This document shows positions 199 to 16,591 of a stretch of DNA of 64,000 nucleotides, piece after piece (the first letter of the stretch is position 1; every line of letters starts with the position of its first letter). Under the pieces are notes generated by a model. It ran no database searches. It was not told the DNA's origin and worked only from the letters and a program-made list of their open reading frames with translations. Origin of the DNA: an uncultured Gammaproteobacteria bacterium. GTDB taxonomy: Bacteria; Patescibacteriota; Microgenomatia; UBA10105; UBA927. The stretch spans positions 14,214 through 78,213 of the forward strand of contig CAZNKB010000004.1 of the NCBI GenBank assembly GCA_964573695.1. The letters run 5' to 3'. The position numbers and the translations under genes were made by a program.

Positions 199-1794
199 AT
201 GCGTCGGATAATTTTATCTATCATGTCATTCATCCTTATCGGGATGATGCTTTTAGTACTCCCTCCCCAAGCCCAGGCGCAAGCCGCTGATCCGACAACC
301 GGTGCCGAATGCGATGATGCCACCTGGTATCTCGACCTAAACTGTGTCGTCGCGGGACTTATGAAGGCCTCCGAAGGGGCGCTCAACAAGCAGGCGGGCG
401 ACGTCGGCACTGCCACCATGAGCCAAGGGCAGCTTATTATCGGATTTCGCGGACTGTGCGACGCAGCTAACCCGGATTGCCCGATCGGATTAAGTTATCA
501 AAAAAGCGCGATGGCAGGGCTTGCCAAAAGCACGCTCGCGATGTATCAACATCCGCCTGCCCGAAGTAGCGAGTATATCGCGGACGTAGGACGCACGCTC
601 GGATTTATGCCCAAAAAAGTAGAGGCGCAGGGTATCGGGTTTTCCGGACTTCAAAGCATGCTCCCCTTATGGAAGGTCTTCCGCAATATCGCTTACGCGT
701 TACTTGCCGTTATTATCATCGTTGTCGGATTTATGGTGATGTTTCGGAAAAAAATCGACCCGAAAACTGTCGTTACCGTCCAAAATGCCATACCACGAAT
801 CGTTATCGCGTTGGGGCTCGTCACCTTTTCCTACGCGATCGTGGGAGCCATGATCGACCTTATGTATTTGGCTATCGTGTTATCCGCTTCGGCAGTCGAT
901 AGCGCTTCGGGCGGTAATTTAGGAAAACTATTAAGCCTTGCGACCACGCTTAATCTGGACATACTGCCCCCGAGTTTTACGGCTCCTACGACTTCAGCCC
1001 CGGTAGAAAACGCGACAAAACTTCTCCTAAATGGTGGTGTCAGCGGACTCCTTCGATTTTTCTTTGCAAGCGGCTTTCAGGCATACGACGATATCGGAAC
1101 CATGATTACTCAAAACGACCCGCTAAATATCGCCGCCTGGACCGTCGTTCCCGGAGTAATCGGTTATATGTTCGGACTAAGAGGCGCGCTATTGGGTCTT
1201 ACCACAGGACCGGTACTACTCGCCATTATATTTTTGATCATATTACTCTTTGGTGTGATCCGGCTTATTTTCATGCTACTGGACGCCTATATCAATATCA
1301 TCATTTCGCTGCTCACCGCCCCGTTCCAGCTGATGATGGAAGCAATTCCTGGAACCAATGCATTTAGCTCGTGGTTTAGGAATTTATTATCAAAAATTCT
1401 TGTATTTCCGATTACCGTACTCCTGCTGTTAGTCACGGCGGTACTCACCTCCCAGGACGTTTCAATGAGCATATGGGCTCCCCCGCTACTCTCCACGGGC
1501 GAGGGGACATATGGTATGGCTGGGCTCATCGGGCTCGGCATGCTTATGGTTATCCCAACGATTGTCCAAGGATTACAAAAAGGTCTTAAGGCAGAGCCCC
1601 TTGTCCCCGGAGGGGTTGGTCCTATCGTTGGGCCGCTGGGATCCGGTGTAGGTACGCTATTTAACCTTGGATACCAAGCGAGCTTTATAGCAAGCGCTTT
1701 CCGACACAAACCGGAAGCAAGATCCTCTATGCAGATTGCCCGCGAAGGAGCCGAAAAAGGATTAGGGTCAATTACCGGCGGCGGCGGTCACTAA
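199..1794 (+). CDS. Polytopic membrane protein with an N-terminal signal peptide and at least six transmembrane helices. VirB6/TrbL-like type IV secretion channel component (inference).
   Basis: 531 aa. The signal peptide MRRIILSIMSFILIGMMLLVLPPQAQA is followed by many long hydrophobic segments and a Gly-rich C-terminus. The gene sits beside VirB4- and VirD4-like ATPases. Confidence 0.45.
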   Translation: MRRIILSIMSFILIGMMLLVLPPQAQAQAADPTTGAECDDATWYLDLNCVVAGLMKASEGALNKQAGDVGTATMSQGQLIIGFRGLCDAANPDCPIGLSYQKSAMAGLAKSTLAMYQHPPARSSEYIADVGRTLGFMPKKVEAQGIGFSGLQSMLPLWKVFRNIAYALLAVIIIVVGFMVMFRKKIDPKTVVTVQNAIPRIVIALGLVTFSYAIVGAMIDLMYLAIVLSASAVDSASGGNLGKLLSLATTLNLDILPPSFTAPTTSAPVENATKLLLNGGVSGLLRFFFASGFQAYDDIGTMITQNDPLNIAAWTVVPGVIGYMFGLRGALLGLTTGPVLLAIIFLIILLFGVIRLIFMLLDAYINIIISLLTAPFQLMMEAIPGTNAFSSWFRNLLSKILVFPITVLLLLVTAVLTSQDVSMSIWAPPLLSTGEGTYGMAGLIGLGMLMVIPTIVQGLQKGLKAEPLVPGGVGPIVGPLGSGVGTLFNLGYQASFIASAFRHKPEARSSMQIAREGAEKGLGSITGGGGH

Positions 1795-1813: not shown

Positions 1814-4800
1814 TCAGTGGTGACTTCCCCCGCTTTCCTGTTCTTTGGTAGATTTTTCTATCGCTATGGCTAGCGTTGCTGCCAGCACAACCCACCAATA
1901 TTTCCGATATAACGCGGTCAACCGATACGGCAAGCCGGTCTTAAACTCTCGCCGCAGGTCCAGAATATATTCGGGATGGTTAATAAACAATCCCATGTCT
2001 TGAGCTGACACCAAAATCTCTTCCATTTTCGCTTCATCCCATGCGTTTGCGTGCGCACCGGTATAGCGTGAGGAATAAGATATCGCCTCCCCCACAGAAT
2101 GCGGCCAATGACTAATTTTTTCTTTTACCAGTTCTTTCCAACGGTCTTTTCCAAACACGAGCTGAAGAATTTTATTGTCCTTAAGCGGGCGCAGATCCAC
2201 CTCTGCCAAATACATCAGTCCGCGGGTCAATCCGGGAACCCAGCCAACTGTTTTTAGGCTTCTGTGTCTGTTCATTTCAAAAAAGACGCGCATCATTTCT
2301 TTTACCGTGTTTTCTGCGGCGTCAGGACCGGAATAATCAACGATCGCGGTTCTCACTTCCATCATTTTCTGAAGAGATTTGGTGTAATCATTGGGAGACA
2401 AAACCATCTCGTTATTTGAGAAAAACTCCAACATACCATTTCTCGCGTTCATTTGTGCTCCCACATCCCGGATTCTTCTGTGCATGGCGACGGTTCCCAG
2501 CTGATAAAAATTCGATTCTTTCCAATCAAAATCTGTCATGCTCATGGTAAGGGGTAATTTAAGCGCTGCGATAGCGTCCATTTTATTGTGAAATGTCCCC
2601 CCCGACGCTTCAACCGTACGCCCGCGGTAAATCTCAGCCTGCATATCGACAAGCACCTGTCGAAGATTTTCGCTCCGCGTTGGATCAAGCTTCAATATGT
2701 TTAAATACGGCACGACCAGGGCATCAAAATCCTTCTTTTCTGCCAAATCCACCCGGGCGAACTGCCAGTCTTTTTCGTGAGCCATTTTAAGCTCGGCAAG
2801 CGAGAGAGCTTCTTTAAATTTCTTCCATTCTTCATGAGTAACCTTGTTCTTCGTTAAGATTCGCTCTGTATCTTCTTCGAGTAATTCCAAAAACTTCGAG
2901 GGATTTCGTCGAAGCATGCGGTCCAATATCGGCTTGCGCTCTGCGGCGTTACCTGCGGTGAGCAATTGAATAGAAAGCGCCTGATTATCCAGTAATGCAG
3001 CGTTTTCCGGCAACTTTTTCATGCTCAAGAGCTTGCCCCGAAGTTCATCTGCTACTCCCTTTTCAAGTCTCCACGCGGTGCCGTCATAAAACCCTCCGCT
3101 TGCCATAAATCCTGGCCCCAAAAGTTCACTAAAGGATATTCCTGTCGCGTCTTCCGCAAATTCCCAGGCTTCCATGGAGGCCTGACGTTCTTTATCATGC
3201 TCATGGTGTTTCGCCTCGCGCCATTCCTTAGACTTGGTAATCTTAAACTTCTCACCCAGTTTCTCAACGGCTCCGCCGATTTTTTTGAACCACCCGGGCT
3301 CCTTCGGATTAATACCCTTGGTGTTTAGCAAATTTTTGCGGAATATACTCCGCGCGGTAATACCCATGTCACCACCGATATTAAATCTGCTCGCGAACGT
3401 TTCCGGATTAAATATGCGTTGGATATCTTCAAACGCAGGAGCTCTCATCACGTGCTTACCAGAAGCCGTACCGTACTCCACGGCTGGTGGAATCGACATC
3501 ATGGCTCCTATCATCGCCATGCGACCCGACCCGATCATGGCAGTCCGAGAGGCCCACAACGCCATACGCACTTCGTATTCGGCAGGTTTGTAATTAGGAT
3601 CTTCAGGATGCTGCGCCTGAAGATATTCAACGAGACGCTTACGGACCTCGATATCGACCGGCGAAAGTCCGCGCGTCTCTAACAGCTCCTGTGTAAAATT
3701 TTCGTTAAGCATTTCTTCCCGATGAGAATAGATCTGGTACAATCTGTCGACTTCTGCTAGCTGCTCGTTTTCCTTTTCTGTCAGCGCCGTTCCCTGGCTC
3801 TTTTTCTTGAGCAATTCCTCGCGATTATTCTTAAGCTTGGAAAGCGTGATGTGCAGCTCGGTATAACTTTGAACGTCGTCGTCCCACAACATGACACCTT
3901 CTGCTGCCAAATCATTCTGTTGCTGTATTTCGTGCATCAGGCGCTGATCTTCTATGGAAAGCGGGCTTTGGGTCTTGCCCTTTGCGGGATCAAATCCTTC
4001 TTGGCGCTGCTTCGCCCTGAGTTCTTTTAAGACATCTTCCCTCTTCATGTGCTTGCCGTTCCAGGAAATTTCTTCCTGCATGTACTTTATGGCTTCGCCG
4101 TATTTTGCGCGCTTGGTGGCCATAAGTTCAAATAACACATGTTCATAAAGACTGTATGCTTCGTTCGAATGATCGAAGTTCTTATAAAGGTGGTCCAAAT
4201 CAGCGCCCTGGAGGAGGCTCATAGCCTTGAGCCTATCCTTCACGTCTCCCGGGTTATACATAAGTCCTTTGACCGCATACTCATATTGTCCGCGGCTATC
4301 CCAATGTTTTTGGTACAGCTGAACCGCTAAGTGATACTCCCCGCCATATTTCCACACGAGATAATCCTTAAACTCCTGAAAGCGCTGATCCTGGGTAAGC
4401 GTCGGTCGAGTCTCTTCGCGTCCCATGGAATATATCTGGTCAATAAAGTCAAAATACCACCGCGCCTCCCCTTCGTCTCCTTGAATAAGCATCTCGACGT
4501 CAGCAGGAGGGATGTAACGGAAATCTGGAAAAACCTCGTCCGGCTTGTGAAGATCCGGGTTGGGAGCGTTCTGCATAATTTCTCCCCACGTTACGACCCT
4601 GCCTCCGCGGAGCTTCTCTTGGTGTTTTTGCATCCGCAAGTCAGTAAACCGCTCAAAATATCGCACGCGCTCTACGGCCTTTTGAACTAATTTTTCGTCG
4701 ACGCCCTCCCTACGGCCTTTTTCTACCATGCGCCGAACGGCGTCGTCGGTGAGTCGGTTGTCATATGCCGCTCCGGGATCTACCCGGAAGCGGTACTGAA

Positions 4801-5449
4801 GCTCCTGCAAATCAAAACCAAGCGGCGTGTCCTTTAAATCGGCGTCGACGGACTCATCGAAAAGTTTTTTGACTTCCTGAGACAACTCAGGATCCCTATC
4901 TGCATTCTCTTCACTTTCTCCTTGAGACGAGCCGTCTTCTACTCCTGATCCTCCGGCAATCACCGGCACCGCTTCAATCTGTAAGTCGGCAAGGCTGGGA
5001 TTTTCAGCGATAATTTTACGCAAATATTTCCTCGCTTCTACTGCTGTCGGACTGGTAAGCCCCGATTCCTTTGCCACCGCTACAAGCTGAAGGCCGATTC
5101 CGCGCATATACTCAGGATCTGCTAGCTGCGCTTCATCGGCGGTAAGAAGCGATTCGACGATGCTAAACACCCGCTCGTCTTTAGGAAATTCTCCGTCTCC
5201 CCCCAACATCCTTCGTTTAGCTGTTTCCGAGGCAACCTCGGCGCGTTTGGCAGCAAATGCCGTCAGGCGCTCCTTGCTTACTTCTTTTACGTCCTTCTTC
5301 ACTTCTTGCTCGAGCTTCACTTCCGGAGTTTCTGGAGAATAGGGGGGCTCTGGAGAAATCGGTGTTTCGGGTGACAAAGGTTGTCCCCCGCTTTGAGCGG
5401 CTTTTTTTGCCGCTTCGTTGAGCCTTTTAAATAACTCCTCATTTGCCAT
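1814..5449 (-). CDS. Large (1211 aa) cytoplasmic protein of unknown function, with a Pro/Glu-rich N-terminus and no signal peptide.
   Basis: Long uninterrupted ORF with no transmembrane segment and no recognisable catalytic motif. No relaxase 3-His motif was seen. It is embedded in the T4SS-like cluster. Confidence 0.6.
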   Translation of the reverse strand: MANEELFKRLNEAAKKAAQSGGQPLSPETPISPEPPYSPETPEVKLEQEVKKDVKEVSKERLTAFAAKRAEVASETAKRRMLGGDGEFPKDERVFSIVESLLTADEAQLADPEYMRGIGLQLVAVAKESGLTSPTAVEARKYLRKIIAENPSLADLQIEAVPVIAGGSGVEDGSSQGESEENADRDPELSQEVKKLFDESVDADLKDTPLGFDLQELQYRFRVDPGAAYDNRLTDDAVRRMVEKGRREGVDEKLVQKAVERVRYFERFTDLRMQKHQEKLRGGRVVTWGEIMQNAPNPDLHKPDEVFPDFRYIPPADVEMLIQGDEGEARWYFDFIDQIYSMGREETRPTLTQDQRFQEFKDYLVWKYGGEYHLAVQLYQKHWDSRGQYEYAVKGLMYNPGDVKDRLKAMSLLQGADLDHLYKNFDHSNEAYSLYEHVLFELMATKRAKYGEAIKYMQEEISWNGKHMKREDVLKELRAKQRQEGFDPAKGKTQSPLSIEDQRLMHEIQQQNDLAAEGVMLWDDDVQSYTELHITLSKLKNNREELLKKKSQGTALTEKENEQLAEVDRLYQIYSHREEMLNENFTQELLETRGLSPVDIEVRKRLVEYLQAQHPEDPNYKPAEYEVRMALWASRTAMIGSGRMAMIGAMMSIPPAVEYGTASGKHVMRAPAFEDIQRIFNPETFASRFNIGGDMGITARSIFRKNLLNTKGINPKEPGWFKKIGGAVEKLGEKFKITKSKEWREAKHHEHDKERQASMEAWEFAEDATGISFSELLGPGFMASGGFYDGTAWRLEKGVADELRGKLLSMKKLPENAALLDNQALSIQLLTAGNAAERKPILDRMLRRNPSKFLELLEEDTERILTKNKVTHEEWKKFKEALSLAELKMAHEKDWQFARVDLAEKKDFDALVVPYLNILKLDPTRSENLRQVLVDMQAEIYRGRTVEASGGTFHNKMDAIAALKLPLTMSMTDFDWKESNFYQLGTVAMHRRIRDVGAQMNARNGMLEFFSNNEMVLSPNDYTKSLQKMMEVRTAIVDYSGPDAAENTVKEMMRVFFEMNRHRSLKTVGWVPGLTRGLMYLAEVDLRPLKDNKILQLVFGKDRWKELVKEKISHWPHSVGEAISYSSRYTGAHANAWDEAKMEEILVSAQDMGLFINHPEYILDLRREFKTGLPYRLTALYRKYWWVVLAATLAIAIEKSTKEQESGGSHH

Positions 5450-5536: not shown

Positions 5537-6091
5537 TTATCGATACAAATTGTTGATTTGTATATACGAGGCGACGGACGGCGGAACAAACTGATCAATG
5601 GGGAGGCCCTTACTCGCGCGTTGACGTATCTTTGTCGAAGATATATTTGTTCCGACCAGCAACTCGTGAGAGACTACCGTCATATTCGGGTGCAATGGCT
5701 CATTGGGGTACCCGTATCTGGGGAATACAACAAAAGGAATTTGCCGAATAAGTGTTTCCCACTCTCCCCACAGGTGAAGCGTCGGAAGCTGATCAGAGCC
5801 GATAATAAACCGGAACTCGTGTTCTCGCGGTAAATATGGCAGCAGATGTATGGTATCTCCGTCAAGCGCATGATCAATCTCAATAGACGAAACCTTTGTA
5901 TGGGCAAGGGTCAGCAGCTTTGTCATTGCCAGACGGTGCGTGACCTGAGCTACCGGCTTAGGAGGAATTTGACCATAATTTGGCAAAAACCACACCTCAT
6001 CGATGTCTGTAAAGTCTAAAATCTGCTGGGCGATCATGAGATGCCCGATATGAGGCGGGTTAAATGCGCCGCCCAATAACCCAATATTCAT
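5537..6091 (-). CDS. nadD: Nicotinate-nucleotide adenylyltransferase (NaMN adenylyltransferase)
   Basis: GGAFNPPHIGH (the HxGH nucleotidyltransferase motif) and a C-terminal ISSTKIR motif. 184 aa. Confidence 0.85.
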   Translation of the reverse strand: MNIGLLGGAFNPPHIGHLMIAQQILDFTDIDEVWFLPNYGQIPPKPVAQVTHRLAMTKLLTLAHTKVSSIEIDHALDGDTIHLLPYLPREHEFRFIIGSDQLPTLHLWGEWETLIRQIPFVVFPRYGYPNEPLHPNMTVVSHELLVGTNISSTKIRQRASKGLPIDQFVPPSVASYIQINNLYR

Positions 6092-6098
6092 GTCAGCG

Positions 6099-8282
6099 TT
6101 ATTGTACCTTTTTTGTATATCGCTCGCGAGAAACTCGTATAACCGTCTCTCGATGCTCGTTTTTGCTACGTGGAAGCGGCAACGTCATAGCAGAAAATGG
6201 AGTCGACGTTTGATTATCTATGGAAAGCTTCAGCACCACCTGGAAGTTCCCGAGCGCGACGAGTTCGGATTCTTCATATTTCTCGCCGAATTCACGGGTC
6301 AGCAACCTGGCGTCCGCCGCCCCGACCGCAAAGGAGATAATTGACCCTGCATTTCCAAAAATCGCCTTTTGCACATCTTCGTCGATTTGTCCTATATATT
6401 GATTCGCAAGCGTCAGGTTGAGCCTATATTTACGGGCCTCTGATAGAATCTTGATAAACGACTGAGTCGCAAAATTTTGGAACTCGTCGACATAGAGATA
6501 AAAATCGCGCCTGTTTTCTTCTGCTTTATATACCCTGTTCATGGCGGCAAGCTGCATTTTTGTGATAATCATCGCCCCAAGCAAAGCACTGCTATCCTCT
6601 CCTAATTTTCCTTGAGACAAGTTAACAATCACTATTTTCCCTTCGTTCATCATGTGCTCCAAATCCACCGTTGAGACAGGATGACCTACGATGTTGCGGA
6701 TCGTGCGTGACGAAAGAAACTGCCCGACTTTATTGAGGATCGGTGATATGGACTCGCTCCGCATCTGTGGGCTTAGCCGATTAAATTCGTTGAGCCAAAA
6801 ATTTTTGAGCACGCGGTCGTCAAGTTTTTCAACCACCTTCTCTCTATATTTATCATTGGTCAATAATTCCGGGATATCCAAAAAAGTTGATTGTGGTACG
6901 TGTGTGAGCGTGAGAATCGTATTTCTGAGGATATATTCCAATCTCGGCCCCCAACTCATGTGATACAGCTTATAAAAAATAGACACGATGCCCGAAGCCA
7001 CAAGCTCCCGGTATGCAGGATTTTTTACTTCCAGGGGGTTTAAATGAAACGGATGATCCATGTCGGCCGGATCCAAATACGCAACGTCGTTTGTTCTATG
7101 AGAAGGAACGTAATCAAGAAGGATGTCGCTTAGATCTCCGTGGGGGTCTATAACCGCCATACCTTCCCCATTTTTCATGTCGTTTATCGCCATGTTGGCG
7201 ATGAGCGTTGATTTTCCCGTTCCGGTTTTTCCGATAATATAGACGTGTTTCCGTCGGTCTTCCTTTTTCACTCCGAACGTGGTTTGTGTATTTTTGTATT
7301 CTGTTTTTGCAAAAAAGTTTATACGGCGCTTCTCCTCCTGATCCTCCGTCACTATGGGCAGGTTTGCCGGCGCCTCGCCCAAAAGATGCGCCCCCCAATG
7401 GATATTTTTTATCATGGAGAGCCCGATCCCAGGCGGATGCCACAACGATGCCAGCTCTGAGGCGCCCAACACTTGAAATCTCGGCCGTCCGTAATCTCCT
7501 CGGGAGACAAACGACTGTTCAAACTTTTTCTTCTGCCAAAACTGGGGAACTGATAGAGTCAAATTGTTTCCTTCTCCCAGCGTATACACCCCGAACGCTC
7601 CCCCTGTCGTTTGAAGGATGTGCTGAGCACGCTCGACACTCGGAGCAACAGCCAATAACCGAAGTGACGCAAAAAATCCAACCTGGTTCATCTTTGTCTC
7701 CATGATTCGTGCGTGCGGATGCGGCTTTGTCCGCCCGACAGTCGAGTTAGGATCAGGCACTCCGCGAGCGATAATAGACCCTATCGACTGCTGCCAGGAG
7801 CTTCCCGCAGGAGAAAGGCGTATTTGCAGAGCTATCGCTTCCTGAGGCGCAAGTTTAGCAAATTGTCCTGCTACCCCGGAAAGAATATCGAGATCTTTTA
7901 TGTCTTTGTATGTTTTTAGGGGTAAGTAAAAACTATTTCCATATACTAGTTGGCCAGAGGCATGAGGAAGCGAAAGAAAATGCTCGGCATAATCATCGGT
8001 TTTTGCAATTAAAACCCGCGGGTACTGCGCGGTCAACTGACTTTCCAAATACCCCCGAAGGGACTCGGTCGTTGCGACAAAAAAATGAATTCTGCTGTTT
8101 ACCGAAACCATCTCTAAACTGAAATACGGGGCCATATGTCCCGGGTGAAGCAGTCGGGAAATAATTCCCTGATGTCCTCCCCCGCTCCCTAACGCGGCAA
8201 AAACCTGCTCCATGGCAAGCGGTGTTTCTTCACTTTCCCTAGCGTTTTGAATTTCTAATACGGTAAGACCTGAACTGGTCAT
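6099..8282 (-). CDS. P-loop ATPase of the FtsK/HerA/VirD4 (TraG/TraD/TcpA-like) coupling-protein type. There is no N-terminal transmembrane anchor.
   Basis: Walker A motif IIGKTGTGKSTLIANM, followed by MAVIDPHGDLSDI (the DPHGD box typical of conjugative coupling ATPases and HerA) and a Walker B motif FYLYVDEFQNF. 727 aa. Confidence 0.55.
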   Translation of the reverse strand: MTSSGLTVLEIQNARESEETPLAMEQVFAALGSGGGHQGIISRLLHPGHMAPYFSLEMVSVNSRIHFFVATTESLRGYLESQLTAQYPRVLIAKTDDYAEHFLSLPHASGQLVYGNSFYLPLKTYKDIKDLDILSGVAGQFAKLAPQEAIALQIRLSPAGSSWQQSIGSIIARGVPDPNSTVGRTKPHPHARIMETKMNQVGFFASLRLLAVAPSVERAQHILQTTGGAFGVYTLGEGNNLTLSVPQFWQKKKFEQSFVSRGDYGRPRFQVLGASELASLWHPPGIGLSMIKNIHWGAHLLGEAPANLPIVTEDQEEKRRINFFAKTEYKNTQTTFGVKKEDRRKHVYIIGKTGTGKSTLIANMAINDMKNGEGMAVIDPHGDLSDILLDYVPSHRTNDVAYLDPADMDHPFHLNPLEVKNPAYRELVASGIVSIFYKLYHMSWGPRLEYILRNTILTLTHVPQSTFLDIPELLTNDKYREKVVEKLDDRVLKNFWLNEFNRLSPQMRSESISPILNKVGQFLSSRTIRNIVGHPVSTVDLEHMMNEGKIVIVNLSQGKLGEDSSALLGAMIITKMQLAAMNRVYKAEENRRDFYLYVDEFQNFATQSFIKILSEARKYRLNLTLANQYIGQIDEDVQKAIFGNAGSIISFAVGAADARLLTREFGEKYEESELVALGNFQVVLKLSIDNQTSTPFSAMTLPLPRSKNEHRETVIRVSRERYTKKVQ

Positions 8283-8404: not shown

Positions 8405-9700
8405 ATGGAGCAACATCCGGTTCCTCAAAATGTCACCACGTTTCAGTTTCGGCTGATCGGTGACATGACAATTAAACAATTCGGATATTTATGCGCAGGG
8501 GCAATTTTGGCGTTTATCGCATACAAACTTCCCCTTCCTTTTATCATCACCTGGCCGCTTACCGGTGCTTTCGCGTTTTTGGGGGTCGGGTTTGCGTTTA
8601 TCCCAATAGAAGAGCGACCCATGGACGTGTGGGTGTTTTCTTTTTTTAAAAGCATCTATAGTCCGACACAATATATCTGGTCTCACGAAAGTACTACGCC
8701 AACTCCAAAAACACAGGCCGCCCCGAAAGCTGTACCAAGCCCGACAGTGGCTACCACCGCTGTGCCGGTTGCCACTCCAACACAACCGACCCCTCCCTCC
8801 GCCATACCGCCTCAAGCTCATCCACAAACGTCAAAAAGCGTTTTGTCGGGATTATTCCAAACCCCTACTCCAGCGACCCCACAACCCGCTCAACAGGACA
8901 GAGTGCGTGTTGCAAAACCGCATGTTTCTATTCTGGATGAAATCGCGCTATTTTTTCGCCCAAAACACACACCCTCCTCTGTTGCTGTCCAGTCCGATAC
9001 GCAACAGATTCCTCCCGTGACCGGAAAACACGCGGACATCGACCCAAAACCACAATCACCTCCCACATCAACGCTCGAAGCATCTCAGATGCAACAAAAA
9101 ATGAAACAACTGGAGGAAACCCTGGCGACGCTTGAAACCCGCCTGGCTACCAAATCCATGACCGAAGACCGCGTTCTGGAACTACAAAAACAACTCACCG
9201 ACGTCATGGTCGCAAAAAACAAAACTGAGGAAGAGCTTGTCACGCTTAAGCGAAAAATGACTCCGGACGCTCCTCCTGTCGCTTCACAAAACGCTCCGAC
9301 GCTCGGTCGCGGCACGGTCAACGTCATCACTACGCAGGAGGCGGCCGTAAAAGTTGGGCTTCCGAGATTAACCAATGTTCCCAACGTGATCACGGGGCTC
9401 GTGAAAGACGACGCCGGCAATCTCCTCCCCGGAATTCTCGTCACGGTAACAAATCATGAAGGTGTTCCTGTCCGCGCGCTAAAAACCAACAAGTTAGGAC
9501 AGTTTGCCGCGTCTACCCAACTTATGAGCGGCGTGTATTTTGTGGAAATCGAAGATCCAAGAGGAAGATTTTCGTTCACCAGAGTGCAAATCACCTTAAA
9601 CGGCTCTGTCGTGCCTGTGCTGGAGATTATCGCACGGAGCGAAAAAGCGTTGACTCGTGAAAAACTCGCACAGGAAATTTTCGGCAAAACATCAATATAA
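8405..9700 (+). CDS. Membrane protein with two N-terminal transmembrane helices (VirB3/PrgI-like?), a Pro/Thr/Ala-rich linker, a coiled-coil segment and a C-terminal prealbumin/CarboxypepD_reg-like beta domain.
   Basis: The N-terminal transmembrane hairpin is LCAGAILAFIAYKLPLPFIITWPLTGAFAFLGVGFAFIPI. The low-complexity PT-rich linker spans roughly residues 100-230. The coiled coil includes KMKQLEETLATLETRLATK. The C-terminus reads GLVKDDAGNLLPGILVTVTNHEGVPV...GVYFVEIEDPRGRF. Confidence 0.45.
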   Translation: MEQHPVPQNVTTFQFRLIGDMTIKQFGYLCAGAILAFIAYKLPLPFIITWPLTGAFAFLGVGFAFIPIEERPMDVWVFSFFKSIYSPTQYIWSHESTTPTPKTQAAPKAVPSPTVATTAVPVATPTQPTPPSAIPPQAHPQTSKSVLSGLFQTPTPATPQPAQQDRVRVAKPHVSILDEIALFFRPKHTPSSVAVQSDTQQIPPVTGKHADIDPKPQSPPTSTLEASQMQQKMKQLEETLATLETRLATKSMTEDRVLELQKQLTDVMVAKNKTEEELVTLKRKMTPDAPPVASQNAPTLGRGTVNVITTQEAAVKVGLPRLTNVPNVITGLVKDDAGNLLPGILVTVTNHEGVPVRALKTNKLGQFAASTQLMSGVYFVEIEDPRGRFSFTRVQITLNGSVVPVLEIIARSEKALTREKLAQEIFGKTSI

Positions 9701-9706
9701 CCATAT

Positions 9707-10360
9707 ATGGCAGACTCAATCGTACCAATACGCGCGTCAACTCAGATTTTTACCGAAATCGTTGACGTCGATCGTGATCTCGTCCTTTTTGCCGACGGCT
9801 CCGTGTCGCTTGTTATCGCCACAACCGCGGTGAACTTCGGTTTGTTATCCGAAAAAGAACAGGATGCCATAATTTACGCCTACGCCGGACTTCTGAACTC
9901 GCTCTCGTTCCCTATACAGATACTTATACAAACAAAACATAAGGATATTTCCGCATACCTAAAACTATTAGAGGATCAGGAAAAACGGCAGAAAAATCCA
10001 AAACTCACCAAGAGTATTCATGGATACCGCCTGTTCGTGGCTTCCATGGTCAAAGAAAAGGATGTCTTGGACAAAAAATTTTATATCGTGCTGCCTTTTT
10101 CAGCCATAGAACTCGGGGTTTCCTCAACCTTGCTGTTCGGGCCCAAAAAATCTGGGCTGCCATACGAAAAATCGTATATACTCGACAGGGCGCTCACCGT
10201 GTTGTTACCCAAAAAAGATCATCTTATTCGTCTGTTAGCCCGTGTCGGGCTTCACGCGACACAACTTAATTCAAGCGCCTTGGTAAAACTCTTTTTTAGC
10301 ATGTATAACCCTGGTAATCCGCCACCCGACGTCACAATGCTAAATCTTGGAAAGGAATAG
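9707..10360 (+). CDS. Hypothetical cytoplasmic protein (217 aa) immediately upstream of VirB4, with a near-overlap suggesting translational coupling.
   Basis: Clean ORF whose stop lies 3 nt before the VirB4 start. No motifs were recognised. Confidence 0.45.
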   Translation: MADSIVPIRASTQIFTEIVDVDRDLVLFADGSVSLVIATTAVNFGLLSEKEQDAIIYAYAGLLNSLSFPIQILIQTKHKDISAYLKLLEDQEKRQKNPKLTKSIHGYRLFVASMVKEKDVLDKKFYIVLPFSAIELGVSSTLLFGPKKSGLPYEKSYILDRALTVLLPKKDHLIRLLARVGLHATQLNSSALVKLFFSMYNPGNPPPDVTMLNLGKE

Positions 10361-10362
10361 TC

Positions 10363-12294
10363 ATGGCCGAACCTTCTAAACTTACCACATTGTTAAACTC
10401 AATTATGGGCTCGTCCGCCCAGTCAAAAATACACCCGTCAACGCCGTCACAGCAACCTCTTTCTGTAACAGATATCATAGCTCCTCCCGCTATAGAGGTA
10501 GATTTTGACCTTCTCAAAGTCGGTGACTGGTACTACCGGTCTCTCTTCGTGGCCGGATACCCTCGTTTCGTTGCGGCCAACTGGCTGGAACCGCTTGTTT
10601 CGTTTAATCATACCCTTGATATCTCGATGTATGTCTATCCCACCCGAAGCGAAGAGATACTCGAAAACCTGAAGCGCAAAGTAGGAGAAATGGAGGCCAC
10701 CATACAGTCAGACCTAAAGCGCGGCAGGGTTATAGAGCCCTCTGTTCAGGTAGCACTTGAAGACGCCCTCGCTCTCCAGCAGGAGCTTGCAAAAGGCTCA
10801 GAACGGTTTTTCCAGTTCGGGCTCTACGTCACGATTCCGGCAAAAACCAGGGAGGACCTCGATAAAACCACCAAACAAGTGGAGGCAACGCTCGGCTCGC
10901 TTCTTATCGTTACCAAAAAATCGATTCTCCAAATGGAAGAGGGCATGAAAACGACGCTCCCCATGGGCAAGGACAGGGTCCTTGTTACGCGCAACATGGA
11001 TACTACTTCGCTTGCAACAACATTTCCTTTTACCACAAGCGAGCTTACGGCAAACGAAGGGATTCTTTACGGCCTAAACGAGCACAATGATTCGCTTATT
11101 ATTTTCGATCGGTTCACGCTCGAAAATGCCAATTCTGTTGTATTTGGAAAATCAGGAGGGGGGAAGAGTTACATGGTGAAGCTTGAAATCATGCGAAGTC
11201 TCATGTTTGACACTGAGGTAATCGTTATTGATCCGGAAAATGAATATGAAAACCTCACACACACGCTTGGCGGAGAATATATCCGGTTTCGTTTCGGATC
11301 CCAAACCAAACTCAACCCGTTTGATTTGGCGCTTTTAGGGTCCGATCTTGATGACCAAAGCGAACTAAGTCAAAAAGTACTATCTTTGCACGGATTCTTC
11401 CGTGTGGTCATGGGAAAACTTACCCCCACGGAAGACGCGCTCTTAGACCGCGCCCTCATCCTAACCTACAAACAAAAAGGGATTACTCCTGACCCGTCGA
11501 CCCACAAAAAAGAGCCGCCACTCATGGAAGATCTCTACAAAACGCTCGTCGGCATGGAGGAGGTGCTGGCGAAAGGCCTGGCCGACCGTATAGAAAAATT
11601 TGTAAAAGGCAGCTTGGTGGGGATATTTGATCAGCAAACAAATGTGTCGATTAGAAACCAGTTGACCGTGTTCTCGATACGCGACCTTGAAGATGAACTC
11701 CGACCGATCGCTATGTATCTTATCCTCGATTTTATATGGAACAAAATCCGTCATGACAAAAAACGCCGGTTACTCATTGTTGATGAGGCCTGGTATATGA
11801 TGAAGTATCCGGACTCTGCCCAATTTCTCTATGGAATTGCCAAGCGGGCAAGAAAATATTACCTTGGTCTCACCACGATCACCCAAGATGTGGAGGATTT
11901 TATGGCAACGGAAATGGGCAAGGCTATCATCCAAAACAGCAGTATGCAGATACTACTCAAACAGTCTTCTGCGGCTATAGACACGATCGCACAGGTTTTT
12001 TATTTGTCTGAGGGAGAAAAACACCTGCTTCTTGCGGCTGATGTAGGACAGGGGTTATTTTTCGCGGGCCCCGCCCACGCAGCCATGAGGGTAATCGCAA
12101 GTCCGGAAGAGCATGAGGTGGCGACAACCCGACCCCAGGAAACGCTAAAAAATCAAGAGGCGCTCGCCCAACAGTCTCTGGACAAGCCCTTATCAACAAA
12201 CGTCCCTATTATTAAGGAAACGGCCCCCGTGCTTCCCAAATCAAATCGCCCTATATTCACCGTAGAAACGGTACAAAACAGTAAAACCGGGTAA
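10363..12294 (+). CDS. VirB4/TrbE/CagE-family type IV secretion ATPase
   Basis: Walker A motif FGKSGGGKSYMVK, followed by VIVIDPENEYENL and a Walker B motif LLIVDEAWYMM. 643 aa with a large N-terminal domain. Confidence 0.75.
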   Translation: MAEPSKLTTLLNSIMGSSAQSKIHPSTPSQQPLSVTDIIAPPAIEVDFDLLKVGDWYYRSLFVAGYPRFVAANWLEPLVSFNHTLDISMYVYPTRSEEILENLKRKVGEMEATIQSDLKRGRVIEPSVQVALEDALALQQELAKGSERFFQFGLYVTIPAKTREDLDKTTKQVEATLGSLLIVTKKSILQMEEGMKTTLPMGKDRVLVTRNMDTTSLATTFPFTTSELTANEGILYGLNEHNDSLIIFDRFTLENANSVVFGKSGGGKSYMVKLEIMRSLMFDTEVIVIDPENEYENLTHTLGGEYIRFRFGSQTKLNPFDLALLGSDLDDQSELSQKVLSLHGFFRVVMGKLTPTEDALLDRALILTYKQKGITPDPSTHKKEPPLMEDLYKTLVGMEEVLAKGLADRIEKFVKGSLVGIFDQQTNVSIRNQLTVFSIRDLEDELRPIAMYLILDFIWNKIRHDKKRRLLIVDEAWYMMKYPDSAQFLYGIAKRARKYYLGLTTITQDVEDFMATEMGKAIIQNSSMQILLKQSSAAIDTIAQVFYLSEGEKHLLLAADVGQGLFFAGPAHAAMRVIASPEEHEVATTRPQETLKNQEALAQQSLDKPLSTNVPIIKETAPVLPKSNRPIFTVETVQNSKTG

Positions 12295-12299
12295 AACGT

Positions 12300-14483
12300 A
12301 TGGCAAGTGACGCTCAGCCGCTTAAAGAATTTACAGAGAACCTGCTGTCTGACGTTTCTTTGGGAAACATTTCTGTTTATGAGGCCATTGCAGCAGCAAG
12401 TCAGTATGCATACCTTCGGGATCTGATTATTTCAGAAAAAGAAACGCTTGGACAGGCGGAGATCATGGGGGAAAAAGATCTCATCCGGGCATTCGAATCA
12501 ATCGTTTCCCGCGCATCCAAAAAACTTACGGAACTTCCGAATTTTCAAAACCAGTCTCCTGATCAACAACTGCGAGAAGATGACGTTCGGGCGCTTGCGG
12601 AAGTTCGTAAATATGCAGCAACCAGGATAAAGGAAGCCGCGCAAAACAACGTCAGAAACCAAAAGCCAGAGCGGCGCGCTTTTATTCACGATCTTGTTAA
12701 CAAATTCAGTTCAACCGTGCCGACACTTACCGACGAAAAAATTGGGGTTGCGGTTGACCACGCGCTTATCGCCGCAGCAGGAGAAGCCACACAGAAACAG
12801 ACCAGGGAACGTTTTGCCGAACTTCTTATGGCGTCAAGCGAGATATCAATGCCCGAGCTTACACCGCAACAGGCAAACAGTCTAAAAAAAGAAATTGAAA
12901 TGGCAACAAATACGAACGACTCGTATATTTCTGAAGTGACGAAACAGAATAAACGCAACAACCAGCTTGTTACCATGCTCTATGAAAAAACCGATATGCA
13001 GCGTCCGGACGTATTTATCGATATCGTATTAAATGCAAAAGATACCGAGCCCGTATCTTCCTTGTTCTTGCGCGCAGAAAAACTTGCGGAGGTTGCTCAG
13101 TCTCTGGAAAACCATCCCAAGCGGGACGGTGGATCGCTTCAGTTTTTTTCCGCTGGTGGAGCTCGTGGAGTGGCAAAGGGGCTACAACAAGGAGCCGACG
13201 GCGTCCTTTCTCTCGTCGGAGAACCCGTGAGAGAGATGATTATTCACGAAAAAGTCAATGGGACACTCCGGGCAATGCTCTCAAATACACAGCGGTTTGC
13301 CGACCGATTAGGTGAAAATTTCGTGCACAGCGCATTGTTTGCTCACGTTGCCCAGGACTTAACTCGCCAACTCTCGGAAAGACCAACAGGGGGACAGGTA
13401 AGAACTGTGTTTGATGACGTATTTTCCTCCGTATTCCGCGGCCCTTTTAATCCTGCCCTTGCGCGTGGGGCACAAGATCGGTTATTGGACTATTTCGAGC
13501 TTGCTCGGGCAAACGCACAATCTCCAAAAGGCAGGGCGTTTCTTCGTTCAGAAATGCGCCTTTGGGACGCGTTTCGCGTATTTGACCAGCAAAGAGCCGT
13601 CGAGACAACAAGGCGCTCCACCCGCGGCGCTTTCTGGCTCCCCTTTTTTGGATTTCGATCACTTAGCAACTTATTCGGGAACACCGTGGGAACATTGGTC
13701 GACAATACCACTTCGTTTCTATTAACAAACCCTTTTGTTCCACGACAATTATCCCGATCGAGAAGGGCGGCAGCAATTCCTACTCCCATAGGGGAGGATA
13801 TGCCCCTTTTGACTGCGCTTATTGTGGTGGGGGCAGTTGTACTACTTTTTGTCTTCCCGTCTCCACTAAATCTCTCTCAGCTTTCTCATAGTGCAAAAGT
13901 GAGCGCGATATTTGCGTCGCTCAGGCGCTACAAAGAAACTGTGCAAAACATAACAAGCGGCAACATCCAGGCAACAACGTTCGTGTGCACATGGAGCGGA
14001 TCATCTCCTGTTTCCCCTATTAGCACGTGTCCTGTCCGTGCGCCGATTACCCAGGGGCCATTTAGTCCGAGCGGGTCACACAAAACATTAAACGCATATG
14101 ATTTTGGCGCAAGCCAGGGAACCCCCGTCGTAGCCGCCCATGATGCATATGTCGCTTCGTATGTTAACTCGTATGCCCCATACCAGTATAAATACGGAAG
14201 TTATGGCAACAACGTCGTCCTGGTGGCCACTGACCCCTCAAGCAATCAACAATATTGCACGAATTACGCGCATTTATTGGATGTTTCTCCTCAGGTAGCA
14301 GCAAGTTCAGGAAAACCCACGTTGATACCCGCGGGTACGGTTATAGGGTACGTCGACACAACAGGATATACTTATGGGTGTATAGGTAATAAATGTGGCG
14401 AGGGGTATGGCACTCATCTCCACTGGGGGTACAAAGGGCCAAACCAATCAACGCCGTTCCCGCTTCCACCCGGGTGCCCATAA
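12300..14483 (+). CDS. Large protein (727 aa) with a helical N-terminal half, a central transmembrane segment and a C-terminal M23 (LytM-type) metallopeptidase domain. Probable T4SS-associated peptidoglycan hydrolase.
   Basis: The C-terminus reads IPAGTVIGYVDTTGYTYGCIGNKCGEGYGTHLHWGY, which matches the M23 HxH signature. The transmembrane helix is LLTALIVVGAVVLLFVF. The gene follows VirB4 directly. Confidence 0.6.
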   Translation: MASDAQPLKEFTENLLSDVSLGNISVYEAIAAASQYAYLRDLIISEKETLGQAEIMGEKDLIRAFESIVSRASKKLTELPNFQNQSPDQQLREDDVRALAEVRKYAATRIKEAAQNNVRNQKPERRAFIHDLVNKFSSTVPTLTDEKIGVAVDHALIAAAGEATQKQTRERFAELLMASSEISMPELTPQQANSLKKEIEMATNTNDSYISEVTKQNKRNNQLVTMLYEKTDMQRPDVFIDIVLNAKDTEPVSSLFLRAEKLAEVAQSLENHPKRDGGSLQFFSAGGARGVAKGLQQGADGVLSLVGEPVREMIIHEKVNGTLRAMLSNTQRFADRLGENFVHSALFAHVAQDLTRQLSERPTGGQVRTVFDDVFSSVFRGPFNPALARGAQDRLLDYFELARANAQSPKGRAFLRSEMRLWDAFRVFDQQRAVETTRRSTRGAFWLPFFGFRSLSNLFGNTVGTLVDNTTSFLLTNPFVPRQLSRSRRAAAIPTPIGEDMPLLTALIVVGAVVLLFVFPSPLNLSQLSHSAKVSAIFASLRRYKETVQNITSGNIQATTFVCTWSGSSPVSPISTCPVRAPITQGPFSPSGSHKTLNAYDFGASQGTPVVAAHDAYVASYVNSYAPYQYKYGSYGNNVVLVATDPSSNQQYCTNYAHLLDVSPQVAASSGKPTLIPAGTVIGYVDTTGYTYGCIGNKCGEGYGTHLHWGYKGPNQSTPFPLPPGCP

Positions 14484-14485
14484 TT

Positions 14486-15490
14486 ATGAATAGAACACAA
14501 ATCATAATCGTCTTTATTTTTGTTTTTGCATTGCTCACGTCCCTTTGGGTCGTATTCTCTAAAAAACCAAGACAGCAACAGACGCTCCCTCCTCAGCTGT
14601 TTGTAACCCCTGTTCCCATTCGTCCTTCGGCCATGCCTCAGTCAATATCCAATAGCCCGGTCACTTATTTGGGCGAACTGCTCTTCACTGCTCCAAAAAC
14701 TGTCCCGTATTATTCGATAAACAGACGAAGAGACTTTGAAACGGAGCGGGCAAGGCTTTTTGCGTTCTATAACATCGCTGCCCCACCAACAACAATCATC
14801 GGTGCTAGGGGGCGGTACGCAAGCTTCGTTCAGGGTGGAAAATCCGGCACGATATCAGAAAACCCTCTAACGTTTGTTGTTCGCGCTTCGGCAACCTCCA
14901 ACAAGACCATAACAAGCGACGCAAATGCTTACCTCTCGGGGGTTACAGGCGCCCTAACCGAGCTATCCTTGCTCCCCTCGTTGTTCGTCCCAACGATTAC
15001 CTCCCAACGATATTTTAAGTTCGATGAATCACACCCTACGGATTTAAAATCTCCAGAGGGAGCCTTGGTTACTCGGTTGGATCTCACTGCTTCGATTGAG
15101 GGGGCGCCTCTCTTTATTGGTGATGCCGATACCCCTGTCTTTTCCGCTAGCTTTAATGGGGATAATACGTTAGTTGAGCTTCGCAGCTCGATCCTACCTG
15201 ATATTACCCGCGAAAAAAACAGTGTCGAAATAATCTCGTACGACGAGGCGCTTCGTAGGCTCAAATCTAACACAGGAATTTTCTCTAGCGTCTCGCTGAC
15301 AAGCGCCGGTGACAAGGAATTCATGACGGGAGCTCTCCCGGACAACATAAAAATCGAGAGAGTAACGCTCGGATACTATTATTCAAATATCCAGGACTAT
15401 CTTATTCCGGTTTTTGTATTTTCCGGATCCGCTCAAGAACCAGGAGGGCCCGCCGTTCTTCGCACGACAACTGTCGTCTCTGCTTTATGA
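14486..15490 (+). CDS. Hypothetical membrane-anchored extracellular protein (N-terminal signal anchor).
   Basis: The internal Met MNRTQIIIVFIFVFALLTSLWVVF starts at 14486, immediately after the M23 protein stop. The ORF-track start at 14393 would overlap the upstream gene. Confidence 0.45.
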   Translation: MNRTQIIIVFIFVFALLTSLWVVFSKKPRQQQTLPPQLFVTPVPIRPSAMPQSISNSPVTYLGELLFTAPKTVPYYSINRRRDFETERARLFAFYNIAAPPTTIIGARGRYASFVQGGKSGTISENPLTFVVRASATSNKTITSDANAYLSGVTGALTELSLLPSLFVPTITSQRYFKFDESHPTDLKSPEGALVTRLDLTASIEGAPLFIGDADTPVFSASFNGDNTLVELRSSILPDITREKNSVEIISYDEALRRLKSNTGIFSSVSLTSAGDKEFMTGALPDNIKIERVTLGYYYSNIQDYLIPVFVFSGSAQEPGGPAVLRTTTVVSAL

Positions 15491-16591
15491 TGTCACTCGC
15501 ACCGGCATGATGATATGAAGATAAGAATCGTCTTTCGCGGGCTTGAACAAACCGGAGTTAAGAGATCCTGTCATTTCAAAAATAAATTCTTCTTCCTGAT
15601 AATTAGAAAGAAAATCAAGTAGGAACCGACTATTAAACGCGATTTCACCCCCGTCACCGTCTATTTTTGCTTGTAGCTCAATCGAGTTTTTTCCCACTTG
15701 TGCGGCGTTTGCGGAAACCACAATTTTTTGTTTATCAAGGTTTAGCCTAACAATGTTTGCGTTGTCCCTGGCAAAAATCGCGGCAGACCGAACAGCCCGC
15801 AGCAGCCCTTCTTTTTCGATCAGCGCCCTGGTTGTGAATGTTTTTGGGATAATCCGTTCAAAGTTTGGATATTCTCCTTCAAGCAACCTGGTAAGAAGCG
15901 TGGTTTCCCCCACAACGAATCCCACCTGGTTGTCTCCTGCTGGACCCACACGAATATCCTCGCTTGTTTTTTCTTCCCCCGACAACTTCACAACCTCAGC
16001 AAGGGCTTTGGCTGGAATAATCGCCTGAGAAAGATTTTTTGCTGAAAACGCCATTCTGTGAAGCGATAGTCGGTATCCGTCGGTTGCAACAAAAAGCGTT
16101 TTCTCCCCTTCATCAATGACTTTCACGCCTGTAAGCATCGGTCTCCCTTCATCTGTCGCGGCCGCAAACAAAACATTAGAGAGCGTCGAGATGAGCGCGC
16201 TTTTATTTATGCTCCCCGCGTCTTTTAATGAGAGCTGTGGCACGGGAGGAAATTCTGTCGCGGCTATGGTCGGTAACTCTGCCTCAAAGCCCGCGCTTGA
16301 AACAAACAGCCTCTCTTCCTTAACACACAAGTGGATCGTCTCAGGCGGAAGAGTTGCGACAAATTCGAAAAGCACCCTCGCTGAAACACATATTGCCCCC
16401 TCTTTCTCAACCTTGCCTCCCACCCAAACGGTTTCCGTCGTTTCCATGTTTGTTCCGGTGAGTTCTAACCCGTCTTTTGTAGCTGTAAGTCGAATATTCT
16501 GCAATACAGGAAGCTGCGGCTTCGTTGGTACTATCCGCGTGACGTGAGTAAGGGCTTTCTGAAGGTTTTCCTGTAAAAGCTTTATATTCAT
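15485..16591 (-). CDS. dnaN: DNA polymerase III beta sliding clamp
   Basis: 368 aa. N-terminus MNIKLLQENLQKAL. Three-domain clamp architecture. Located immediately downstream of dnaA. Confidence 0.85.
   Translation of the reverse strand: MNIKLLQENLQKALTHVTRIVPTKPQLPVLQNIRLTATKDGLELTGTNMETTETVWVGGKVEKEGAICVSARVLFEFVATLPPETIHLCVKEERLFVSSAGFEAELPTIAATEFPPVPQLSLKDAGSINKSALISTLSNVLFAAATDEGRPMLTGVKVIDEGEKTLFVATDGYRLSLHRMAFSAKNLSQAIIPAKALAEVVKLSGEEKTSEDIRVGPAGDNQVGFVVGETTLLTRLLEGEYPNFERIIPKTFTTRALIEKEGLLRAVRSAAIFARDNANIVRLNLDKQKIVVSANAAQVGKNSIELQAKIDGDGGEIAFNSRFLLDFLSNYQEEEFIFEMTGSLNSGLFKPAKDDSYLHIIMPVRVTS

Follow-up and report, generated by a model that had tools for sequence, protein, structure and literature searches.

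A large helical protein encoded beside the coupling ATPase of an origin-proximal type IV secretion cluster in Patescibacteria: a candidate cargo or adaptor

The 1211-residue protein encoded by the open reading frame (ORF) at positions 1814..5449, minus strand, of the 64-kb stretch of DNA analysed here (the window), which we call BIG, belongs to a type IV secretion system (T4SS) gene cluster of a known, recently described kind, of which it is a lineage-restricted component not described before. It is a constant member of that cluster in one large Microgenomatia-type lineage and is encoded with the substrate-receptor ATPase of the system, the VirD4-like type IV coupling protein (T4CP). As a tentative first choice among several readings, we propose that BIG is a dedicated protein cargo of a chromosomal, relaxase-less, monoderm-type (MPF-FATA-like) T4SS of a Gottesmanbacteria-type Patescibacterium. 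This reading is ranked first because the cluster has a receptor ATPase without a relaxase, BIG is encoded with that ATPase, the C-terminus is the most conserved part of the protein, a signal peptide is lacking and the divergence of BIG in one subclade is that of an outlier; the last two features together fit a host-facing translocated protein better than an internal part of the machine. The T4CP is the substrate receptor in T4SSs, T4SS signals usually lie at the extreme C-terminus of the substrate, and some known T4SS cargo, CagA for example, is likewise large and all-helical without a fold match.

In the proposed route, BIG would be made in the cytoplasm as the product of the last gene of a T4CP-nadD-BIG unit, and its C-terminal module would be recognised by the soluble VirD4-like ATPase, which has no transmembrane (TM) segment. 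The protein would then travel through the VirB4/VirB3/VirB6 channel and the pilus apparatus into a host cell, where a short C-terminal helix may anchor its large helical body to the membrane. A quite unlikely elaboration of this route would have BIG as a new-fold, tail-anchored cargo injected into the host membrane, serving as a docking site or conduit for extracting host material, with bursts of divergence that track host switches.

Few machines are conserved throughout the Patescibacteria, and the T4SS is among them; it is essential for epibiotic growth in the single species in which this has been tested, and no substrate of it has been identified according to PMC11665869 and the excerpts of PMC12102498 that bear on it. 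A 2024 perspective describes the role of the saccharibacterial T4SS as “completely unknown” and mentions speculation on effector delivery (PMC11665869). BIG, as cargo or as T4CP adaptor, is a concrete candidate for the role and the substrates of the Patescibacteria T4SS.

The BIG gene and its family

The ORF list and its translation give a complete coding sequence that runs from an ATG to a stop codon at 1814-1816 (minus strand) and encodes a protein of 139 kDa with an acidic isoelectric point of 5.7 and without a single cysteine. As the first-pass annotation of this DNA had stated, it is the largest gene in the window, in which the next longest ORFs have 727 codons. The first residues, MANEEL, are kept across homologues, and comparison with a 99%-identical strain (L050; labels of this form denote the related loci compared with the window) reveals 35 synonymous and nine non-synonymous differences, a dN/dS of 0.068. 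A full-length, intact BIG is present in each locus with enough sequence, and the disruption in relatives that would have spoken against the ORF is absent. On account of the conserved start, the low dN/dS and the intact copies in relatives, BIG is clearly a gene and not a chance ORF; it is real, intact and under strong purifying selection. Scans for promoters and terminators around the gene performed no better than shuffled sequence, and no internal repeats were found in the protein. The N-terminus (MANEELFKRLNEAAKK...) is hydrophilic, in agreement with the earlier statement that there is no signal peptide, and any export of BIG must therefore be Sec-independent. The Pro- and Glu-rich character that had also been attributed to it is borne out by the stretch SPETPISPEPPYSPETPE at residues 26-43 (5321-5374, minus strand).

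The description of BIG as an orphan does not hold. A word-indexed search returned 41 full-length clusters at 45-99% identity, and two further word-indexed searches, with alignments, brought up no protein beyond these 41; an exhaustive search of 1.84 billion representatives with an HMMER profile yielded 107 family members, 78 of them at E<=1e-30. Most of the 107 are 1150-1600 residues long and match BIG end to end, and the remotest profile matches cover only its C-terminal half (the core at residues 586-1172). All of the family representatives come from Patescibacteria of the Gottesman-/Woesebacteria type, and the matches in genome collections are metagenome-assembled genomes (MAGs) labelled Candidatus Gottesmanbacteria, Woesebacteria or “Patescibacteria group”; for the scan of metagenomes a 14-sequence subset of the BIG alignment was used. 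Seven MAG records of the same locus (L005, L006, L008, L010, L013, L015 and L016) are titled “uncultured Gammaproteobacteria bacterium”, a label that is probably wrong.

Apart from its own family, BIG resembles nothing in the collections searched. The window protein has no match in Pfam or NCBIfam at E<=0.01, nor in PHROGs or PADLOC, and the match to a housekeeping family, such as a tRNA-synthetase paralogue or a chromosome-partition protein, by which the first-pass annotation would have been overturned, was not found in Pfam or NCBIfam. When 36 divergent members (alignment A4) were compared with Pfam at E<=1, no family was matched by more than one of them; six long or distant members likewise gave nothing meaningful in Pfam, the match of one (P0136) being a repetitive false positive that was discarded. 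Single-sequence and profile searches of PDB sequences with BIG returned nothing significant, tblastn against plasmid and phage records returned no match, and none of the other proteins of the cluster proved to be a paralogue. With respect to known T4SS components (VirB1-11; Prg, Trs, Tcp, Con), BIG has no Pfam or NCBIfam match; the same searches did match its neighbours to PrgI, TrsD, CD1110 VirB4 and VirD4 families. As to an anti-phage or phage protein, no PADLOC or PHROGs model and no phage record was matched.

A fixed place beside the coupling ATPase

In the window, BIG is flanked on one side by a gene for a VirB6-like polytopic membrane protein (199..1794, plus strand), in which a hydrophobicity scan reveals a signal peptide and six further hydrophobic segments and which has no Pfam match. 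This gene is convergent on BIG, with 19 nt between the two stop codons, and closes a pilin-array operon that begins left of the window. On the other side, the T4CP gene first, then nadD and finally BIG form a same-strand unit, with gaps of 7 and 87 nt. The VirD4-like T4CP (6099..8282, minus strand; 727 residues) matches DUF87, TrwB_AAD_bind, TraG-D_C, NF045973 and SXT_TraD, and nadD (5537..6091, minus strand), which encodes nicotinate-nucleotide adenylyltransferase, matches TIGR00482 above its cutoff (1.3e-37). The first-pass annotation had placed BIG antisense to its neighbours and between the VirB6-like gene and the coupling ATPase; the first statement is correct for the VirB6-like gene and incorrect for the ATPase gene and nadD, which lie on the minus strand like BIG, and the second has to be amended to include nadD, which intervenes between BIG and the ATPase gene. 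The T4CP itself has no TM segment, its maximal Kyte-Doolittle (KD) average over 19 residues being 1.28, and the same applies to five orthologues (range 1.0-1.56); its N-terminal domain of ~330 residues has no Pfam match in the window protein itself and corresponds to PF26449 (DUF8128) in precomputed Pfam matches of the orthologues.

The cluster as a whole is of the kind recently described in Patescibacteria, which, in the excerpts of PMC12102498 concerned, is MPF-FATA-like, usually relaxase-less and located near dnaA (origin-proximal in Microgenomatia), and has arrays of VirB2-like pilins; most of these clusters have no relaxase, and a non-conjugative role has been suggested. The window shares with them a CD1110-type VirB4, TrsD-like and PrgI-like proteins, an M23 hydrolase, a T4CP, the adjoining dnaN and dnaA and, in its relatives, the pilin array. 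It differs from most of them in that the T4CP gene is adjacent to, and divergent from, the VirB4 operon; in the same excerpts, 148 of 5,713 T4CP homologues are near virB4. No large helical protein like BIG is mentioned in the gene-repertoire section of that study or in the passages of it that match the relevant terms.

The gene order was compared in a sample of 23 loci that show both flanks of BIG or a substantial part of them, and it is constant in all 23. An operon with the M23, VirB4, TrsD/TraC-like and PrgI-like genes diverges from the unit formed by the T4CP gene, an optional slot and BIG, and this unit converges on the operon of the VirB6-like gene and six pilin genes, beyond which the relatives have sigma-factor, Yip1 and mevalonate-pathway genes. 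The fixed position holds from 93% down to ~21% identity between BIG proteins; in L016 the T4CP gene is absent from its usual position. The content of the optional slot varies: it holds nadD alone in the window, nadD with nadE (NAD synthase) in L044, L049 and L052, nadD with two or three small genes in L027 and L032 and an inverted nadD in L030, and it is empty in L048 and L026, in which BIG directly follows the T4CP gene. The place of nadD is a variable “insertion slot” in a cluster that is otherwise rigid. Two distant relatives have toxin-antitoxin pairs next to the locus, a Polbeta/HepT pair upstream of BIG in L041 (446-1301) and a HicA/HicB pair beyond the VirB6-like gene in L053 (6073-6547), where other relatives have the pilin array.

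Since the genes of the slot vary and the order holds, the adjacency of BIG to the T4CP and VirB6-like genes outlasts local rearrangement. The linkage to the T4SS is nevertheless suggestive and not proof, because synteny by descent extends in all loci over everything between dnaN and the mevalonate genes, and because a housekeeping gene, nadD, sits inside the cluster. The same facts bear on an alternative in which BIG has nothing to do with secretion and is a lineage-specific, membrane-associated passenger (an envelope, cell-division or defence protein) inherited with the origin-proximal block: the conserved position could be due to descent only, nadD (with nadE in relatives) is stably embedded between the T4CP gene and BIG, and no sequence or fold links BIG to any T4SS component. 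We consider this alternative unlikely, in view of the intervening genes that come and go as the adjacency of BIG to the T4CP and VirB6-like genes persists, of the pilin/VirB6 operon that stands beside BIG in 23/23 of the longer loci, and of the lack of any PADLOC or PHROGs match.

The rate at which BIG evolves differs sharply between subclades. Within the subclade of the window, BIG is as constrained as the ATPases. Between the window and L011 the identities are 91% for VirB4, 92% for T4CP, 80% for nadD, 90% for the VirB6-like protein and 89% for BIG, and the corresponding dN values are 0.077 for BIG, 0.062 for VirB4, 0.057 for T4CP, 0.141 for nadD and 0.187 for the M23 protein. In the sister subclade (L027, L032, L034 and L052), no other gene of the locus comes near BIG in divergence. 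Between L027 and L032 it retains 43% identity, compared with 87-97% for VirB4, 90% for T4CP, 76% for nadD, 70-74% for the VirB6-like protein and 81-90% for the pilins; between L032 and L052 the respective values are 22-26% for BIG and 85-94%, 85%, 62%, 56-60% and 80-93% for the others. With the exception of the C-terminal end, this divergence is distributed evenly over the chain. In the family as a whole the identity of BIG drops to 21-23%, compared with ~75% for VirB4, 64-68% for T4CP and 59-62% for nadD.

Fold, C-terminal module and possible roles of BIG

An AF2 model built with only the 41 close homologues was poor (pLDDT 62, pTM 0.36) and took no part in the fold search. Addition of distant members gave a model of residues 86-1211 with a mean pLDDT of 83.2 and a pTM of 0.75; residues 1-85 were left out of the structure models. 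The predicted protein is nearly all helical, with small beta hairpins at ~460-525 and 946-953 and low-confidence linkers at residues 164-184, 576-583 and 718-746. A Foldseek search with the predicted structure, which had been suggested in the first-pass annotation as a route to remote homologues, yielded no significant match in the PDB, in which talin ranked best (E = 0.03, probability 0.23, TM-score 0.11), or in BFVD (best E = 3e-3, TM 0.09); matches to MukBEF and cohesin were also non-significant (E ~1-2, TM 0.06). The likeness to the talin rod and to other long helical-bundle or solenoid proteins, which are all-alpha and composed of multiple bundles, is a generic helical resemblance and not significant. 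The model thus adds a large predicted fold, confidently modelled, that has no counterpart in the PDB or BFVD.

Along the chain, residues 1-85 (5195..5449, minus strand, as are all segments of the protein) begin with MANEEL and continue as a variable low-complexity stretch, mostly “x” in the alignment consensus, that is probably disordered. They are followed by an N-terminal helical bundle at residues 86-163 (4961..5194), consisting of helices only with pLDDT 81-93, and by an acidic, Gly/Ser-rich disordered linker at residues 164-184 (4898..4960), which has pLDDT <50 (model residues 79-99) and 34% gaps among distant members. The remainder of the helical N-terminal half, residues 185-585 (3695..4897), is the most variable half of the family, with block identities of 0.15-0.27 among distant members; residues 336-435 within it are the best conserved block in the subclade of the window (0.87-0.92 among close members), and the small beta-hairpin subdomain at ~460-525 ends in a near-invariant GV.LWD.DV motif, in which G518 is invariant and D523 nearly so. 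The conserved helical core, residues 586-1172 (1934..3694), has block identities of 0.25-0.36 among distant members and a pLDDT mostly of 85-95, apart from a variable basic loop at residues 718-746 (model residues 633-661) with pLDDT <50. It contains most of the invariant residues, namely M668, E674, R678, F689, G696, G785, R794, R991, D995, P1072 and S1124, as derived from alignments of 36 and 52 sequences.

These data leave little room for a catalytic role in DNA processing. Among the options of the first-pass annotation (effector, relaxase, primase, scaffold), the effector and the scaffold are still viable, and the relaxase and primase have neither a motif nor a domain nor a P-loop behind them. 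HUH relaxases are defined by the three metal-coordinating histidines of motif III and the catalytic tyrosine of motif I (excerpts of PMC12857230), and no His or Tyr is invariant among the 36-52 aligned members of the BIG family. The sole HxH of BIG, HEH749, lies in a variable loop and is not conserved in the family, in line with the earlier remark that no 3-His or Tyr relaxase motif was visible, and a motif scan of BIG found no HExxH. An identity as an HUH relaxase (MOBF/P/Q/V) is not supported on these grounds and for want of a Pfam or NCBIfam match, nor is that of a non-HUH relaxase (MOBH HD-hydrolase, MOBT Rep_trans, MOBC nuclease, MOBM Tyr recombinase) or a primase, as no domain, PDB-sequence or fold match was obtained. 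The absence of a P-loop, also noted earlier, was confirmed by the Walker A expression [AG]xxxxGK[ST], which has no match in BIG, and by the lack of any AAA or P-loop Pfam match. Relaxase, primase and NTPase readings are therefore not supported, failing as they do each testable defining feature. It is very improbable, too, that BIG is a novel DNA-processing enzyme, an analogue of a relaxase or primase that makes up for the relaxase function lacking in Patescibacteria T4SSs. Relaxase genes often adjoin the T4CP gene, the place taken here by BIG (excerpts of PMC12102498), and the invariant R678, R794, R991, D995 and E674 could bind phosphate or nucleic acid; yet the family lacks an invariant Tyr or His and any HUH, HD, Rep_trans, tyrosine-recombinase, TOPRIM or P-loop signature, 36 members have no Pfam or NCBIfam match, the all-helical model matches no solved nuclease or relaxase, and the cluster, which is chromosomal and close to the origin, shows no trace of a mobile element.

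Of all parts of BIG, the C-terminal end is the most conserved across the family. Residues 1173-1211 (1817..1933) form a module that ends the protein in a single 34-residue helix (model residues 1088-1121) and that is present in 52/52 aligned members as a pair of basic residues ([RK][RK]) followed by Y-W-W, an uncharged run, an acidic or mixed stretch with the consensus EEEKK and, often, a Gly run and a terminal His. The corresponding hydrophobic run of the window protein is YWWVVLAATLAIAI, residues 1184-1197 (1859-1900), in which W1185 and W1186 are near invariant. Over the 52 members, the uncharged run has a mean length of 15 (range 13-19) and is followed by 6-19 residues, and the net charge is +2.3 in the eight residues before it and -0.8 in the 12 after. 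Among distant members, this C-terminal block is the best conserved of all (0.41 identity), and BIG proteins with an overall identity of 20-43% still agree at 86-100% of their last ~10 residues. The layout of a tail anchor, with no signal peptide, a single C-terminal run and a positive flank before it, is found in 52/52 members, with a hydrophobicity below the classical threshold: the maximal KD average over 19 residues of BIG is 1.28, compared with 1.6. The earlier claim that BIG has no TM segment accordingly stands under the 19-residue KD criterion and is doubtful in view of the conserved C-terminal run.

Judged from the sequence features, the module looks like a tail anchor (N in, C out) or, equally, like a targeting signal at the C-terminus that includes a helix of moderate hydrophobicity. 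It does not resemble sortase or exosortase signals (LPXTG, PEP-CTERM, GlyGly-CTERM), as BIG has no signal peptide, basic residues precede the helix and the tail is acidic. An Arg-rich positive C-terminus of the VirB/D4 type (~20-30 residues) is likewise found neither in BIG nor in the family. The search for a positively charged T4SS signal, proposed in the first-pass annotation, thus ended negatively: the last 30 residues of BIG contain four K/R and three D/E, and the family consensus after the run is acidic.

The first of these likenesses, taken as an anchor in the membrane of the producing cell, underlies the most serious alternative to an exported cargo, which is possible though doubtful. 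BIG would then be a tail-anchored inner-membrane adaptor or scaffold with its C-terminal helix in the producer's membrane (N in, C out), the body of ~1,170 residues on the cytoplasmic face docking the TM-less T4CP, and possibly VirB4, to the VirB6/VirB3 channel. The lack of TM segments in the T4CP and its five orthologues, the genes of which are co-directional with or immediately adjacent to BIG, is in keeping with such a part, as are the textbook tail-anchor layout of the module, the single copy of constant size in a fixed position at each locus and, in the subclade of the window, a constraint like that of VirB4 and T4CP. That a separate membrane protein may tether a T4CP has a precedent in the pIP501 system, in which the proposed role of TraI, a small membrane protein, is to anchor TraJ, the T4CP (excerpts of PMC12857230). 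The two pairs have in common a monoderm, MPF-FATA-type system, and the TM-less T4CP encoded co-directionally with BIG and the anchor-like C-terminal helix of BIG suggest a comparable, predicted anchoring role; however, TraI is small and has two predicted TM helices, BIG has 139 kDa and one short C-terminal run, and the two are not homologous. The run of BIG, moreover, is short and only moderately hydrophobic, its KD average staying below 1.6, and a scaffold in contact with ATPases that are 85-97% identical should hardly have diverged to 22-43% identity, in loci in which even the pilins remain at 80-93%.

Several observations weigh against the proposal that BIG is a translocated cargo, and some of them would suit the adaptor. 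The evidence for secretion of BIG is indirect (the co-directional T4CP gene, the conserved C-terminus and the outlier divergence), and its recognition by the T4CP and its insertion into a host membrane are inferred. In the subclade of the window, BIG is constrained like VirB4 and T4CP (dN 0.077; dN/dS 0.068) and in this respect looks like a part of the machine; exactly one copy of constant length in a fixed position at each locus is typical of a structural component. Effectors are often multiple and scattered. The positive-inside charges around the run would fit insertion into the producer's own membrane equally well, and the classical positively charged C-terminal signal of VirB/D4 systems is absent. 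Synteny of the entire oriC-proximal region is a matter of descent, and nadD and nadE likewise keep stable places inside the cluster, so that position alone is no proof of a T4SS function. Finally, the family is found in one Microgenomatia-type lineage only, and if BIG is cargo, other Patescibacteria must use something else.

For the cargo that we tentatively favour, a parallel in general outline is CagA, the substrate of the cag T4SS of Helicobacter pylori. Like BIG, CagA is a largely alpha-helical protein (~120-145 kDa) of a narrow lineage without a signal peptide, its fold had no relatives when first solved, and it is encoded by a single dedicated gene inside the T4SS locus. Its C-terminus carries information for delivery and it associates with membranes afterwards, to which BIG may be likened, its secretion being conditional on the proposal above. 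The two proteins have no sequence or Foldseek similarity, and CagA, unlike BIG, carries a basic signal at its C-terminus, where it has no hydrophobic helix, and belongs to a diderm VirB-type machine. Diderm VirB/D4 or Dot/Icm machines are also the systems that deliver effectors with the XVIPCD, BID and “E-block” signals. In common with these effectors of Xanthomonas (X-Tfe), Bartonella and Legionella, BIG has a conserved C-terminus and a divergent remainder (see also PMC8740702), an acidic Glu-rich stretch near the end and a gene that adjoins that of a VirD4-type receptor. It has no sequence match to XVIPCD, BID or E-block; its conserved region extends over ~600 residues and its terminal module includes a hydrophobic helix.

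Other genes of the cluster and the origin region

The divergent T4SS operon (8405..15490, plus strand) was delineated by Pfam, NCBIfam and a TM scan. Its first gene (8405-9700, plus strand) encodes a PrgI/VirB3-like protein of 431 residues with two TM helices (residues 26-64) and a C-terminal Ig-like CarboxypepD_reg domain; the PrgI of a T4SS review, with 117 residues, is far smaller. It is followed by genes for a TrsD/TraC-like protein of 217 residues (9707-10360, plus strand) and a CD1110-type VirB4 ATPase of 643 residues (10363-12294, plus strand; NF045971, 3e-119). VirB4 is split between these two genes, as the TrsD/TraC-like protein matches the N-terminal part of the VirB4 model and the ATPase, 3 nt further on, matches positions 162-730 of the CD1110 model. 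The next gene encodes a membrane M23 peptidase of 727 residues (12300-14483, plus strand), recognised by Pfam, NCBIfam and the TM scan, which lacks a signal peptide; its only TM helix spans residues 501-519, and its 500-residue N-terminal part is without a domain match. The peptidase is among the fastest evolving proteins of the cluster (24-75% identity), and its M23 region weakly matches a phage tape-measure PHROG.

The last ORF of the operon (14393-15490, plus strand), for a bitopic protein of 365 residues according to the TM scan, overlaps the M23 gene by 91 nt. Its true start is probably Met32, as homologues align from about residue 47 and a strong TM helix is located at residues 37-55. 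The protein is a candidate VirB8-like component, a component rarely detected in Patescibacteria (excerpts of PMC12102498). No relaxase was found in the T4SS cluster. The pilin array lies just beyond the left edge of the window; in every relative it comprises six small genes (~100-135 codons), several of them matching PF18895 (T4SS_pilin), upstream of the VirB6-like gene, at 6341-8572 in L050, 15312-17540 in L011 and 15190-17539 in L044.

T4CP, VirB4, the TrsD-like protein, nadD, the 365-residue protein and BIG all contain zero cysteines, compared with an average of 0.82% for the other ORFs of the window; the BIG family averages 0.07%. At the 0.82% of the window, the lack of cysteine in BIG has P ~5e-5, but its use as a sign of export was rejected, because the cytoplasmic VirB4, T4CP and TrsD-like proteins are cysteine-free as well.

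Directly after the T4SS cluster come dnaN (15485-16591, minus strand) and dnaA (16772-18139, minus strand), and the cumulative GC skew has its minimum at ~14-16 kb of the window; from this position of dnaN and dnaA and the skew minimum, the window spans the chromosomal replication origin region. No tRNA genes (ARAGORN) and no Rfam families at the gathering threshold were detected in the 64 kb. Beyond dnaA, the segment 18248-27924 holds a set of genes of the surface-polysaccharide type, with two Wzy_C (O-antigen-ligase-like) membrane proteins, a methyltransferase, GT1 and GT2 glycosyltransferases and an ABC-2 transporter pair.

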